The notes under the pieces: model-generated
Seen by the model: only the letters and a program-made list of their open reading frames with translations
Told to the model about the DNA's origin: nothing
Databases searched by the model: none
Source: Myxococcales bacterium
Lineage (GTDB): Bacteria > Myxococcota_A > Polyangia > Polyangiales > Polyangiaceae
Direction of reading: 5' to 3'
Assembly: GCA_016720545.1 (NCBI GenBank)
Contig: JADKKK010000003.1
Coordinates: 537,516-601,515, forward strand
Length of the DNA stretch: 64,000 bases
Part shown: positions 12,619 to 64,000 of the stretch, in pieces
Numbering within the stretch: position 1 is the stretch's first letter
Layout of the letters: every line of letters starts with the position of its first letter
Position numbers and translations under genes: made by a program

Positions 12619-14604
12619 ATGACCCACTCGGCGGACACCCCCCCACGCAGCGAGCCGCAAGCGGGCGGCGCGAGCCTCGCGCCCATCGACCCGCCGCGCC
12701 TCTACGACGAGATGAACCGCCTCGCCGAGCGGCTGCTCGAGCTGCCCCACGGCGCGAAGGCCGGGCGCCCGCACCCGCTGCTCGTGTCGCTGCTCCGCGA
12801 CGGGGCGATGGTCGTGTACGTGCCCGCCCGCGTGTGGGACGACGCGCGCTCGCTCGTCGCGCCGTTCGCGCAGCGGTGCGCCGAGGGCACCGCGCTCCTC
12901 GTGCTCGTCGGGCGGCCCCGCTTGCGCGACTACACGCGGGCGAGCGGCCTCGGCATCTCCACGGTGCTCCCCGAAGACGCCTGCCGCGAGGAGCTGGAGA
13001 TCGCGACTGACCGCGCGTTCGAACTGCTCGAGGCGAAGGGCCACGCCGAGAGCCGCGCCGCCTCTCTGTCGCGCTTTCGCTTCGAGACCGACGAGCTCGT
13101 CGACATCGCGCGGGCCATGACCACCGAGCGCGACGTCGACAAGCTGCTCGGTCTCATCCTGCAGAAGAGCCGCTTCGTCACCGGCGCCGACGCGGGCAGC
13201 ATCTACGTCGTGGAGAACGAGGGGGAGACCCTCCGCTTCAAGCTCTCTCAGAACGACAGCATCTCGTTCGACTCGCGCGAGTTCACGATGCCCCTCTCGA
13301 ACCGCTCCATCGCGGGCGCCGCGGCCGTCGAGAAGCGCGCGATCATGATCGAGGACGTGTACGCGCTGCCCCCGTCGTCCACGTTCGCCTTCGACCGCCG
13401 CTTCGACGAGAAGATCGGGTACCGCACGAAGAGCATGATGACCGTGCCGCTCATCTCGCAGCGCGGCGAGGTGCTGGGGGTCATCCAGCTCATCAACAAG
13501 AAGCGCGATCCCCGGGCGAAGGTCGTGGGCGACGACGCCGTGGCGCTCCAGGTGGTGCCCTTCGACGAGCGCAGCGCCGAGCTGCTCGGGCTCGTGGCCG
13601 CGCAGGCGGGCATCTCGCTCGAGACGGCCACGCTCTACCAGGAGATCCAGGCGCTGTTCGAGGGGTTCGTGGGCGCGAGCGTCGAGGCCATCGAGTCGCG
13701 CGATCCGACCACCAGCGGTCACTCGCGTCGCGTCGCGAACCTCACCGTGGCGCTCGCCAAGGCGGTCGACCGCACGGCGAGCGGCCCCTACGCCGCGGCG
13801 ACCTTCGGCCGGGAAGACCTCCGCGAGCTCGAGTACGCCAGTTTACTTCATGATTTCGGAAAGATAGGGGTACGCGAGAGCGTGCTCGTGAAGGCGAAGA
13901 AGCTCTTCGACGAGCGACTCGAGCTCATCCGCGCGCGCTTCGATTTCGTGGCGCGCTCCATCGAGACCGACATCCTCTCGCGCAAGCTGCAGGCGGTGGA
14001 GCGCCAGGCCCCGCTGTCGGAGCTGCGGGCGCTCGACGACGAGCTCACCCGGCGGATCCGCGCGCTCGACGAGTCGATGCAGACCATCCTCGCCGCGAAC
14101 GAGCCCACCGTGCTCGCGGCGGGCGACTTCGCGAAGATCGAGGCGCTCGCGAAAGAGTGGTACCTCGACCTCCGGGGTGAGACCCGCCTCTTGCTCGAGC
14201 CCGACGAGGTCACGGCCCTGTCGGTGAAGAAGGGCTCGCTCACCCCGGTCGAGTACGACGAGATCACCCAGCACGTGACCCACACGTTCCGCTTCCTCTC
14301 GCGCATCCCGTGGGGCAAGGCGCTGCGGCGCGTGCCGCACATCGCGGGGGCGCACCACGAGCGCGTGAACGGCACGGGGTACCCGAACCGCCTGCGCTCG
14401 GAGGAGATCCCCGTGCAGTCGAAGATGATGAGCGTCACCGACATCTTCGACGCCCTGACGGCGAGCGATCGCCCCTACAAGAAGGCCGTTCCGCTCGAGC
14501 GCGCGATCGACATCCTCGAGTACTCGGTGAAGGACGGCCACGTCGACGGCGACCTCGTGCGCATCTTCAAAGAGGCGCGCTGCTGGGAGGCGACACGGCC
14601 GTGA
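12619..14604 (+). CDS. GAF domain / HD-GYP domain protein (putative c-di-GMP phosphodiesterase)
   Basis: Central GAF-like region, then an HD-GYP domain: HSRRV..LLHDFGKIGV...HHERVNGTGYP. Divergent from pdxH. The alternative start at 12604 adds 5 aa. Confidence 0.85.
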   Translation: MTHSADTPPRSEPQAGGASLAPIDPPRLYDEMNRLAERLLELPHGAKAGRPHPLLVSLLRDGAMVVYVPARVWDDARSLVAPFAQRCAEGTALLVLVGRPRLRDYTRASGLGISTVLPEDACREELEIATDRAFELLEAKGHAESRAASLSRFRFETDELVDIARAMTTERDVDKLLGLILQKSRFVTGADAGSIYVVENEGETLRFKLSQNDSISFDSREFTMPLSNRSIAGAAAVEKRAIMIEDVYALPPSSTFAFDRRFDEKIGYRTKSMMTVPLISQRGEVLGVIQLINKKRDPRAKVVGDDAVALQVVPFDERSAELLGLVAAQAGISLETATLYQEIQALFEGFVGASVEAIESRDPTTSGHSRRVANLTVALAKAVDRTASGPYAAATFGREDLRELEYASLLHDFGKIGVRESVLVKAKKLFDERLELIRARFDFVARSIETDILSRKLQAVERQAPLSELRALDDELTRRIRALDESMQTILAANEPTVLAAGDFAKIEALAKEWYLDLRGETRLLLEPDEVTALSVKKGSLTPVEYDEITQHVTHTFRFLSRIPWGKALRRVPHIAGAHHERVNGTGYPNRLRSEEIPVQSKMMSVTDIFDALTASDRPYKKAVPLERAIDILEYSVKDGHVDGDLVRIFKEARCWEATRP

Positions 14605-47779: not shown

Positions 47780-47914
47780 GCAACGATCGGGGTTGACCGG
47801 CCGAGGCGGCCCTCGACCCGCGGACACCCGAACGCCCGATGTGGACAATGGCCACATCGGGCGCTCGGCCCCCTCGGTTGCGCGCTTCCCCGGCGGAGAC
47901 CGCGGGGCCGGGTG

Positions 47915-60210: not shown

Positions 60211-61215
60211 ATGTTCGTGTTCGCCCCCCCACCCCCCGCCCCTCGGTCGCTCGTCGGCGCCACCGCGCGCGCGGCGCGCCTCGCGGCGGTCTGCGCGCTG
60301 ACGTTGGCGCTGGCAGCCTGCAAGTCGCCTCCCCCGCCCTCCCCGGCGACGGCGAGCTCGAGCGCCACGGGAGCTTCACCCCCTCCCACCGGCGCCGACG
60401 CCGCCCACGTCGCGCGGGCGGACGCCTCGCCCTGCGTCGACGTGCCGTGCGAGACCTTCGCGCGCCCCGAAGAGGCCGTCGCGGCGCTGCTCTCGAAGGG
60501 ACCTCGCGTCATGGCGTTCGGCGAGGCCCACGCCCAGAAGGACGGCCCCGGCGGGCCTTCCACCACCAAGCGCTTCACCGACGGGCTGCTGCCTCTGTTC
60601 AAGGGGAAGGCGACCGATCTGGTGCTCGAGCTGTGGGTGGCCAACGGGAGCTGCGGCAAGAAGACCGAGCAGAAGGTCGCGCAGCAGCAGAAGGCCGTCG
60701 CCGCCCCGCAGGCCGCCAGTAACCAGAACGAGTTCGTCACGCTCGGCGCCGCCGCCAAGGCCGCCGGCATTCGCCCGCACGTGCTCACGCCGCCGTGCGA
60801 GGACTACCTGCGCATCCTCGACGCGGGCGGCGGCGACGTCGATCAAATGTTGTCGATGATCGCCCGGCTCACCGCCAGCGACATAGGCAAGTTCCTTGAC
60901 CTTACGGCCGGGAAGGACTCGCTCCTCATCGCGTATGGCGGCGCGCTCCACAACGACGTCGTGCCCAAGAAGGGGCACGAGTCGTGGAGCTTCGGCGCGG
61001 AGCTCACGCGGAAGCTCGGCGCGAAGTACATGGAGGTCGACCTCGTCGTGCCGGAGGCCATTCGCGAAACCGACGCGTGGAGGTCGCTCGCCTGGCACGG
61101 CAAGTTCGTGCGCGAGCGGCAGGGCGACCGCGCGGTGCTCATGACCGTGGGGCCGAGCTCGTACGTCATCTTCTTCCCGCCGCGTGCGGCCTCCGCGGAC
61201 GCCGGTCGCGACTAA
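60211..61215 (+). CDS. lipoprotein, hypothetical
   Basis: AARLAAVCALTLALAAC lipobox. 334 aa, no recognised domain. An internal GTG alternative start (~60253) is possible. Confidence 0.5.
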   Translation: MFVFAPPPPAPRSLVGATARAARLAAVCALTLALAACKSPPPPSPATASSSATGASPPPTGADAAHVARADASPCVDVPCETFARPEEAVAALLSKGPRVMAFGEAHAQKDGPGGPSTTKRFTDGLLPLFKGKATDLVLELWVANGSCGKKTEQKVAQQQKAVAAPQAASNQNEFVTLGAAAKAAGIRPHVLTPPCEDYLRILDAGGGDVDQMLSMIARLTASDIGKFLDLTAGKDSLLIAYGGALHNDVVPKKGHESWSFGAELTRKLGAKYMEVDLVVPEAIRETDAWRSLAWHGKFVRERQGDRAVLMTVGPSSYVIFFPPRAASADAGRD

Positions 61216-61398
61216 CAGCCCGTTGATTTACTCCCGTCGGCCCGTCGCCGCCGCATCCCGACCGCCGTCGTTGCGATCCTGCGGTGCGTGCTCACCTAGA
61301 AACGCCCACCTGGAACACGCTCCGCCCGCTCCTCGGATCGCGCCTTGGCGGGCCGGGCGCGGACGACGCCGAGCCTCGGTCCGTAAATCAACAGGCTG
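61216..61398. mobile_element. 183-bp element bounded by 16-bp imperfect inverted repeats (MITE-like or structured RNA element)
   Basis: Left CAGCCCGTTGATTTAC (61216-61231). Right GTAAATCAACAGGCTG (61383-61398), whose reverse complement is CAGCCTGTTGATTTAC (15/16 match). The AT-rich ends contrast with the GC-rich genome. It begins right after the stop codon of the upstream gene. Confidence 0.4.
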
Positions 61399-61401
61399 CT
61401 A

Positions 61402-61432
61402 AGCGCCGATCCGCTTGATTCGGATCGGCGCT
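61402..61432. terminator. perfect 12-bp-stem hairpin between convergent genes (terminator-like, no U-tract)
   Basis: AGCGCCGATCCG cttgatt CGGATCGGCGCT. 18 nt downstream of the minus-strand esterase stop and ~190 nt downstream of the plus-strand gene. Confidence 0.45.
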
Positions 61433-61449: not shown

Positions 61450-62394
61450 TCAGAGCGCCTTGAAGAAGTCCCACTGCACCTTCGCGGCCTGGGGCCATAT
61501 CTGGTGTCCCATGCCCTGAATAGGGCAGTAGATCGTGGGCTTTCCGGGCTTGCAGCCCGAATAGGCCTCGCACGGCGCCGAGGCGACCGCGCGCGTCCCC
61601 CCGCAGCCGTTCACGTAGGCCCAATACGCGGCGCTGAACTCGCCGCCGCTGGGCTGGACGGTGCCGTCCGCCAAGCCGTGGATGGCGAGGTACGGGACCG
61701 GCGCCTGGTTCGGGCAGTGTTGGAAGCCGTTGGGCCACTTGTCGTTGGGCGACTCGGGCTCGTAGGGCGCGCCCCCGGAGCTCGACGCGGCGCCACGCAG
61801 CAGCGCGCTCCGGCGGCACGCGAGCTGGTTGACGAAGAAGCCACCGTTGCTCCACCCGGACGCGAATACGCGCGCGCGATCGACGGCGACACGCCCCGCG
61901 AGCTGCGTGAGGATGGCCTCCACGAAGGCGATGTCCTTGTTGCGATCGGCGGGCGTGTAGAGGTCCCACGTGGCGCCCTCGCCGCTCGGGTACACCAAGA
62001 TCGCTGCGTCACCGCTGGCCTCTTGGAACTTGAAGTAACGATAGAGCGAGAAGCCGTCCTCGCCGTCGCCGTGGAAGACGAAGACGAGCGGAGTGGGCGT
62101 CCTCGGATCGTGGTTCTTCGGGAGTCGGAGCCCGTAGGTGCGCGAGCGCCCGGCGGCCGTGACCTGCTCGCGGCTCAAGAGGTCGGGCGGCGGCGCCTCC
62201 GCCTCGCGCGCGTCGGGCGGCGGCTCGGGAGCGCTGGCCGTCGCTGTGGCCGTCTCCGTGGCCGTCGGGGTCGGGGCGGGATCGCCGTCGAGCGTCGGCG
62301 CGGACGGGAGCGGCGCCGGCTTGGAGCACGCGACCGCGAAGAGCGCGACGGCGGCGGCGTGCGCGGGCCACACGAGCGGGCGGTGGACGCTCAC
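61450..62394 (-). CDS. PHB-depolymerase-family esterase (LpqC-like), lipoprotein
   Basis: AAAVALFAVACS lipobox. LVFVFHGDGEDG and the nucleophile motif FASGWSNGGFF. Confidence 0.7.
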   Translation of the reverse strand: MSVHRPLVWPAHAAAVALFAVACSKPAPLPSAPTLDGDPAPTPTATETATATASAPEPPPDAREAEAPPPDLLSREQVTAAGRSRTYGLRLPKNHDPRTPTPLVFVFHGDGEDGFSLYRYFKFQEASGDAAILVYPSGEGATWDLYTPADRNKDIAFVEAILTQLAGRVAVDRARVFASGWSNGGFFVNQLACRRSALLRGAASSSGGAPYEPESPNDKWPNGFQHCPNQAPVPYLAIHGLADGTVQPSGGEFSAAYWAYVNGCGGTRAVASAPCEAYSGCKPGKPTIYCPIQGMGHQIWPQAAKVQWDFFKAL

Positions 62395-63578: not shown

Positions 63579-63596
63579 CGCGTCATGCTAGTCCCC

Positions 63597-63860
63597 GGGG
63601 GGGGGGGTCCCCCCCGGGGGGGGGGGGGCCGCCGCCCCCCCCCCGGGGGGGGGGGGGGGGGGCCGCGGGGGGGGGGGGGGGGGGGTGTGCGGGGGCGGGG
63701 GGGGGGCGCCCGGGGGGGCCACCCCCCCCCCCCCCCGCCCCCGGGGGGGGCGCCCCCCCCCCCCCGGGGGGGGGGGGGGGGGGGGGGGGGGGCGGCCCCG
63801 CCCCCGGGGGGGGGCCCCCCCCCCCCCCCCCGGCCCCGGAGGGGCGACCCGGGCCGGGAG
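63597..63860. repeat. ~265-bp block composed almost entirely of alternating long poly-G and poly-C runs, flanked by 10-bp inverted repeats
   Basis: Runs such as G11, C7, G13, C11, G20, G23 and C16, with very few A/T, then an A7 tract. Flanks GCTAGTCCCC (63587-63596) and GGGGACTAGC (63875-63884). It begins ~20 nt upstream of the S51 peptidase start codon. Confidence 0.8.
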
Positions 63861-64000
63861 AAAAAAAGACTCCAGGGGACTAGCAAATCAGCCGCTGCCA
63901 CGAGCGCGGCGACGGCGATCCGAGAACCATGCCCGCGAGGCGACCACCGAGCGCAGAGCCCCTCCCATGACCCTCAAAGTGAGCAACGAAGGGGCGGCGG

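Follow-up and report, generated by a model that had tools for sequence, protein, structure and literature searches.

A 183-bp noncoding element at positions 61216 to 61398 of the window (the whole 64-kb stretch of DNA that we analyzed) is very probably, at about 90%, a miniature inverted-repeat transposable element (MITE) that retains no more of an insertion sequence (IS) than the ends needed for binding and cleavage and would have been moved in trans by the DDE transposase of that IS. We favor this reading because a CTAA duplication borders the element, the site is empty in sister species, at least 14 copies lie elsewhere, the ends are identical to those of an IS, and YTAR target sites are rare in the window. 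An earlier note on this DNA had put a MITE-like nonautonomous transposon first among its candidates, and the copies, target duplications, empty site, and matching IS bear that choice out.

The element and its target-site duplication

The element, to which we assign no strand, is delimited by its fold, by its other copies, and by its absence from sister species. It begins with a left terminal inverted repeat, CAGCCCGTTGATTTAC (61216 to 61231, plus strand), and ends with a right one, GTAAATCAACAGGCTG (61383 to 61398, plus strand; reverse complement, CAGCCTGTTGATTTAC). The two are complementary at 15 of 16 positions and bound 183 bp with a GC content of 70%, against 72% for the window; the repeats had been described in the earlier note with exact coordinates and sequences. 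The lone mismatch is C/A on the plus strand and a G-U pair on the minus strand. The repeats had also been called anomalous for their AT-rich ends, and 9-mers with at least seven A/T are indeed scarce, numbering just 145 of the 63,992 in the window.

A direct repeat of CTAA, which had gone unremarked, lies at both borders of the element (61212 to 61215 and 61399 to 61402, plus strand). The left copy contains the TAA stop codon (61213 to 61215) of the upstream plus-strand gene at 60211 to 61215, and the last A of the right copy doubles as the first base of the stem of a neighboring hairpin. The element had been noted to begin right after a TAA; it does, because the CTAA target included this stop codon.

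The element has no credible coding capacity, since merely spurious high-GC open reading frames (ORFs) of 72 and 44 amino acids (aa) cross it, with no protein-family match. A tRNA/tmRNA scan of the region returned no genes. By BLAST and pattern search, the 64-kb window contains neither a second MITE copy nor a full-length IS.

The insertion site in related genomes

The element lies between two convergent genes. The upstream gene encodes a 334-aa lipoprotein-like hypothetical protein with no Pfam domain, which is kept in relatives and served as the anchor for the empty site, and the convergent gene (61450 to 62394, minus strand) encodes a 314-aa esterase-like alpha/beta-hydrolase. Four loci from sister species (L007, L008, L010, and L011) have the same five-gene neighborhood and the same convergent pair, with upstream proteins that are 94% (L010 and L011) or 79% (L007 and L008) identical to that of the window. 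Their convergent genes are separated by a spacer of 21 nt, compared to 234 nt in the window. The upstream gene stops at TGA in these relatives and at TAA in the window. We infer that a change from TGA to TAA in the window lineage would have created the CTAA site and that the MITE would then have inserted there, duplicating the 4 bp.

Within the window's own species we found no exact empty site, and the element is on every contig found. Contigs of wastewater metagenome-assembled genomes (MAGs) and metagenomes encode an identical upstream protein, and the window is 99.76% identical to assembly GCA_016704525.1 across 13 kb. Four of the six contigs with the window locus, from four independent assemblies, end 53 to 65 bp within the element, at positions corresponding to 61268 to 61280 of the window (L002, position 11060; L003, 5061; L004, 4287; L005, 3841). 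These breaks fall just short of the first strain single-nucleotide polymorphism (SNP), at 61289, and we attribute them to the element being a repeat. We also considered a retron msd or another hairpin linked to a reverse transcriptase and rejected it, given that the neighbors encode a lipoprotein-like hypothetical protein and an esterase and that the element is flanked by target duplications.

Further copies and target sites

We scanned one genome per species with the pattern GTTGATTTAC-N(136-166)-GTAAATCAACNGG and obtained 41 matches, where roughly 2 would be expected by chance (a rough figure that follows from how large the collection is and from the 22 bases that the pattern fixes). Twelve of the 41 are GC-rich elements of 171 to 183 bp in four other Myxococcota MAGs, one of which is a complete 9.9-Mb Polyangiaceae chromosome. 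A metagenome scan with one end, in which the matches listed were mostly chance singles, yielded three contigs (L255, L256, and L209). One of them (L256) has, at another site, a copy with 98.9% identity and comes from metagenome sample 3300027802, which also holds the window locus; another (L209) carries a 92% identical copy at a third site. The element therefore has at least 14 copies beyond the window, 12 in Myxococcota MAGs and at least 2 in wastewater metagenomes, with 92 to 99% identity to the window element where measured. The earlier note had proposed a search for additional copies and target-site duplications and would have taken a lack of copies elsewhere as evidence against its proposal; the search returned these copies, with YTAR repeats flanking them.

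The 13 aligned copies (the window copy and the 12 from Myxococcota) have a mean column identity of 88% and 62 conserved pairs, and the element ends are conserved in all 13. The Myxococcota copies lie at unrelated loci and in both orientations. The flanks of the copies read CTAG/CTAG (five), CTAA/CTAA (two, including the window), and TTAA/TTAA (one), and six pairs are imperfect, such as TTAG/CTAG, GTAG/CTAG, and CTAG/CTAA. A perfect 4-bp YTAR repeat is present in 7 of 13 copies and a perfect 3-bp TAR repeat in 9 of 13; a 3-bp TAR duplication suits a few copies better than one of 4 bp. YTAR occurs just 39 times in the 64-kb window (0.6 per kb) and CTAA five times, two of which are the element's own duplication. 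Because YTAR sites are this rare in a window with 72% GC, insertion at a stop codon is readily accounted for, and we ascribe to the same target the fact that 3 of the 13 copies begin directly after a stop codon.

These copies also bear on whether the inverted repeat arose by chance in GC-rich intergenic DNA and means nothing biologically. Taken bare, the repeat is not beyond chance: the window contains eight 16-mers with a reverse-complement partner at 100 to 300 bp that matches at 15 or more of 16 positions, against 3.0 ± 2.8 in shuffled versions, and a comparable 19-bp repeat occurs within a kinase gene. The 41 pattern matches against about 2 expected, the near-identical copies, the duplications, the empty site, and the identity of the ends to those of an IS speak against chance, and together the copies and the matching IS refute it, leaving it a negligible probability.

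When the 41 genome loci were all compared with one another by BLAST, they shared no repeat as long as 300 bp, which means that none of these copies has a full-length IS beside it. Scans of viral contigs with both end variants gave lone chance matches. End pairs spaced 1.1 to 1.3 kb apart in three loci (L062, L063, and L068) were rejected as ISs, as they enclose phage genes and no transposases. One further contig (L228) has a solitary end at 2855 to 2870, CTAG|CAGCCCGTTGATTTACTCCGACCGAGCC, which is possibly a truncated copy; its subterminal sequence resembles a hybrid of both MITE arms, and a membrane glycosyltransferase-like gene is adjacent.

The probable partner insertion sequence

The metagenome contig L255 contains a 1,505-bp IS with the left end CAGCCCGTTGATTTAC and the right end (IRR) CAGCCCGTTGAAGTAC, with CTAG on either side. 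The left terminal repeat of the MITE matches the left end (IRL) of this full-length IS at 16 of 16 positions, and the right terminal repeat is IRL-like rather than IRR-like, so that the MITE has a left-type end on either side. Compared with the left end of a related IS copy (L278), the MITE is identical at 24 of the first 25 nt and has nothing beyond them in common with it. With the likeness confined to these ~25 bp, the MITE is not simply a present-day IS that has lost its interior.

The IS has a single ORF of 481 aa with the domains DUF772, DDE_Tnp_1, and DDE_Tnp_1_6. Against the NCBIfam models, the transposase scored best with IS1182 (NF033551; 191 bits, below the cut-off of 270) and second with the IS5 model NF033581 (122 bits, below the cut-off of 140), and other IS5 models scored far lower. 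As the protein falls under both curated cut-offs, its assignment stays between IS5 and IS1182. Homologues of ~480 aa number in the thousands, mostly on contigs of ~1.5 to 2 kb, and the cluster names for the transposase ("transposase," K07487) are uninformative. IS copies with 74 to 97% identical transposases share the left end, and all have YTAR flanks; the left end matches at 16 of 16 positions in P0134-, P0135-, and P0139-type copies and at 15 of 16 in P0121-type copies (CGGCCC..., differing at position 2). A single assembly has three IS copies on long contigs with the perfect duplications CTAG, TTAG, and CTAA. Plasmid pLB1 has an IS with 45% identity that is annotated as IS5 family and has CAG... 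ends and CTAA/CTAA flanks.

The transposase ORF (positions 209 to 1654 of L255, minus strand; likewise in L260 to L286) lacks its own stop codon and continues across the right inverted repeat. Its stop is the TAG or TAA within the duplicated YTAR target, and the insertion site thus closes the ORF. Judged by end sequences and target duplications, the partner of the MITE is very probably a clade of ~1.5-kb ISs of the IS5/IS1182 type with a 481-aa DDE transposase. A transposase of this clade, recognizing MITE ends identical to the IS left end, would mobilize the MITE in trans at 5'-YTAR-3'.

Folding of the element and strand asymmetry

The entire 183-bp element folds as a single long imperfect hairpin, at -116 kcal/mol on the minus strand and -90 kcal/mol on the plus strand. 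With its flanks, the minus strand reached -146 kcal/mol (z = -8.0) and the plus strand -116 kcal/mol (z = -4.4), and no shuffled version of the element folded as well as the real sequence. This result answers the folding check that the earlier note had suggested. With two IRL-like ends and an interior that folds back imperfectly on itself, the element would form a hairpin with a stem of ~70 bp in any transcript or single strand.

The same element strand folds better in all 13 Myxococcota copies, by 14 to 27 kcal/mol. The 62-pair hairpin is retained in every aligned copy; two of its pairs show double changes, and most one-sided substitutions preserve pairing on the better-folding strand. The window copy has an excess of G-U pairs (9 versus 3) that is not significant alone and is weak evidence, because it would be inherited by descent among copies that are 88% identical. 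Relative to the upstream gene, the Myxococcota family shows no orientation bias (4 versus 3).

The pattern scan also brought out an AT-rich sister MITE family in Desulfobulbales, with 30 copies of 173 to 194 bp and up to ~15 per MAG. Its hosts (L012 to L052) include Desulforhopalus, Desulfobulbus, Desulfogranum marinum DSM 2058, and Desulfocapsa. The ends of this family are GAGYCYGTTGATTTAC (GAGYCY...RGRCTC), and the end core GTTGATTTAC is common to both families. Its duplications are ~6 bp and ATNNAT-like (ATAAAT, ATTTAT, ATCTAT, and ATTGAT), and its interior consists of modules, some of which are optional. No autonomous partner of the Desulfobulbales family was found among the 41 loci. The family shows the same fold asymmetry, and its better strand is cotranscribed with the upstream gene in 18 cases versus 9 (P = 0.12). 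Many of these copies lie 2 to 30 nt past a stop codon (for example, L017, L029, L031, L043 to L045, L049, and L052), and where a gene lies within 60 nt, the better strand is in the read-through transcript in ~15 cases versus 4, counted by eye. This orientation tendency could reflect selection, or it could reflect a bias of transposition or replication.

These data bear on whether the element functions as a structured RNA, either an sRNA gene or a structure in a 3' untranslated region acting in cis, with its mobility being secondary. The strength of the fold, chiefly on the minus strand, the uniform strand preference of the Myxococcota copies, the pair-keeping changes, and the read-through counts in Desulfobulbales all point in that direction. 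Set against them, a search of Rfam 15 at a permissive threshold (E ≤ 10) gave noise only (best scores of 10 to 20 bits against gathering scores of 42 to 162, all with E values of at least 0.6), and no promoter-like site for an sRNA was found at the element. The copies occupy unrelated loci in both orientations, the orientation bias is absent from the Myxococcota family and does not reach significance in the sister family, the G-U excess can be put down to shared descent, and the duplications, empty site, and IS-end identity are explicable without any RNA function. We therefore regard a primary RNA function as very unlikely. The sRNA gene that the earlier note had listed as a candidate found no independent support in the Rfam and promoter searches and would be at most a secondary consequence of a mobile element.

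It is somewhat less improbable, although still doubtful, that the family is more than selfish DNA and that there is selection for a strand-specific hairpin of RNA or single-stranded DNA. This reading builds on the existence of two compositionally unrelated families in different phyla that share the end core (C/G)AGYCYGTTGATTTAC, a length of ~170 to 190 bp, and a foldback structure, and in which the better folding of one strand works through G-U pairs. Such a hairpin may have been domesticated as a module for 3' ends or termination, or it may be a single-strand intermediate in transposition.

The neighboring 12-bp hairpin

A GC-rich hairpin with a perfect 12-bp stem and a loop of 7 nt, AGCGCCGATCCG-cttgatt-CGGATCGGCGCT, lies beside the element at 61402 to 61432 (no strand assigned), between the convergent genes, just as the earlier note had reported. 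It is 17 nt from the end of the minus-strand gene at 61450 to 62394, and it is stable (-25.6 and -27.8 kcal/mol). Among the 286 loci that we fetched, the hairpin is unique to the window locus, and in no other copy is it part of the element or adjacent to it. Perfect stems of 10 bp or more are otherwise found at two sites in the window outside a tract of G/C homopolymers, and the sole other perfect 12-bp hairpin outside that tract is CGCCCGATGTGG-acaatgg-CCACATCGGGCG at 47833 to 47863.

The earlier note had tied the hairpin to the element through its loop, which repeats the TTGATT motif of the element ends. That link did not hold up: the hairpin is confined to this locus, it is missing from the other copies, and insertion sites are not enriched for hairpins. 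At 29 reconstructed MITE and IS sites, there was no preference for local structure (median percentile of 0.68 relative to control windows). The TTGATT in the loop is probably a coincidence. The best reading of the hairpin is a terminator-like stem-loop of this locus, with no relation to the element, that would already have been present between the convergent genes before the insertion.

The position of the two structures raises the possibility that the MITE and the hairpin form a bidirectional terminator or RNA-stabilizing block and that the arrangement has been retained for this reason. Both lie inside the 234-nt gap between the convergent genes, the hairpin is stable and close behind the stop of the minus-strand gene, and perfect stems of such length are rare in the window. 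Read-through from that gene would yield a transcript with the hairpin first and the better-folding MITE strand after it, and comparable effects of cotranscription have been suggested by the authors who described MITEPye1 (PMC11578231). An intrinsic (rho-independent) terminator consists of a GC-rich stem-loop and a U-tract; the hairpin supplies the stem-loop, but on neither strand does it lead into a T-run, neither structure has a U-tract, and a terminator scan found no sites. Moreover, the relatives have a 21-nt spacer with no hairpin, and the insertion sites of the family do not favor local structure. We consider such a block unlikely, if less so than a primary RNA function, and we retain the MITE reading of the element, with the hairpin as a separate feature. 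The bidirectional terminator complex, another candidate of the earlier note, would likewise be at most secondary to the insertion.

Other features of the window

Homopolymers of G and C fill ~285 bp of the window at positions 63592 to 63879, with CTAG at 63588 to 63591 and at 63880 to 63883. In a nearly identical MAG contig (L001, positions 13382 to 13674), the same interval has ordinary sequence and holds another MITE-like element, ~293 bp long, TCCCCTGGAAGCGTGAT...ACCACGACTCCAGGGGA, with ends that are complementary at ~14 of 17 positions and CTAG on both sides. The interior of this interval in the window looks like an artifact of assembly or consensus, because the window retains only the ends of the second element. 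Ends of this second family abut copies of the first family in two loci (L015, positions 36 to 50, and L209, positions 39 to 53), sharing a common CTAG.

The kinase-gene repeat is a 19-bp inverted repeat, GCCTCGCGAGCTTCATCGC/GTGATGAAGCTCGCGAGCG, at 1037 to 1055 and 1223 to 1241, in a protein kinase coding region with HRDVKPDN nearby. It has no repeat copies, and chance is its most likely origin.

Relation to known systems

Correia elements of Neisseria and ERIC/IRU elements of enterobacteria are intergenic sequences of 100 to 170 bp with terminal inverted repeats and short duplications; they insert at TA and form long hairpins upon cotranscription with neighboring genes. To our knowledge, no closely matching autonomous IS has been identified for them. 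The window MITE differs in that it targets YTAR and has a partner IS with identical ends, and it has no sequence similarity to these elements.

IS5 is ~1.2 kb long, with a transposase of ~326 to 338 aa and ends starting with GGAAGG, whereas the partner IS measures 1.5 kb, encodes 481 aa, has CAGCCC ends, and stays at 122 bits against the IS5 cut-off of 140. In Escherichia coli, IS5 targets 5'-YTAR-3', duplicates these 4 bp, and is biased toward noncoding DNA (PMC5009759). The partner IS resembles it in its DDE_Tnp_1 transposase with an N-terminal DUF772 and in its 4-bp YTAR duplication. IS1272 of Staphylococcus, a member of the IS1182 family, reportedly targets inverted-repeat structures and makes no target duplication (PMC5678879). 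The model of that family gives the partner transposase its highest score, but the partner clade makes clean 4-bp duplications and has no preference for hairpins.

Among described elements, MITEPye1 of Paracoccus yeei comes closest. It is a low-copy-number, intergenic element of 159 bp with 18-bp repeats, 4-bp direct repeats, and a predicted long stem-loop, and it is tied to the IS1182-family ISPye18 (PMC11578231). Like the window element, it is small and noncoding, is flanked by 4-bp repeats, can form a stem-loop, and has ends like those of an IS with a DUF772/DDE-type transposase. Its host belongs to the Alphaproteobacteria and ours to the Myxococcota, the comparison covers their described features, and ISPye18 is an IS1182-family member, whereas the partner transposase here scores below the curated IS1182 cut-off.

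In the literature searched, we found nothing relevant on the end motif or on MITEs in myxobacteria or Desulfobulbaceae. The MITE and its partner IS clade, both from uncultured Polyangiaceae, thus appear to be previously undescribed in the searchable literature. They can be defined by the ends CAGCCCGTTGATTTAC, a 4-bp YTAR duplication, and a transposase frame whose stop lies in the duplicated target. Although genuine, the finding is an ordinary one, and its value is mainly one of annotation: it accounts for an odd AT-rich inverted repeat that abuts a stop codon and for the breaks in metagenome assemblies at the window locus. For the host, a strict YTAR target in a genome with 72% GC would steer insertions toward stop codons and the intergenic DNA 3' of genes, and transcripts there would thereby gain a hairpin with a stem of ~70 bp, with a putative regulatory effect.
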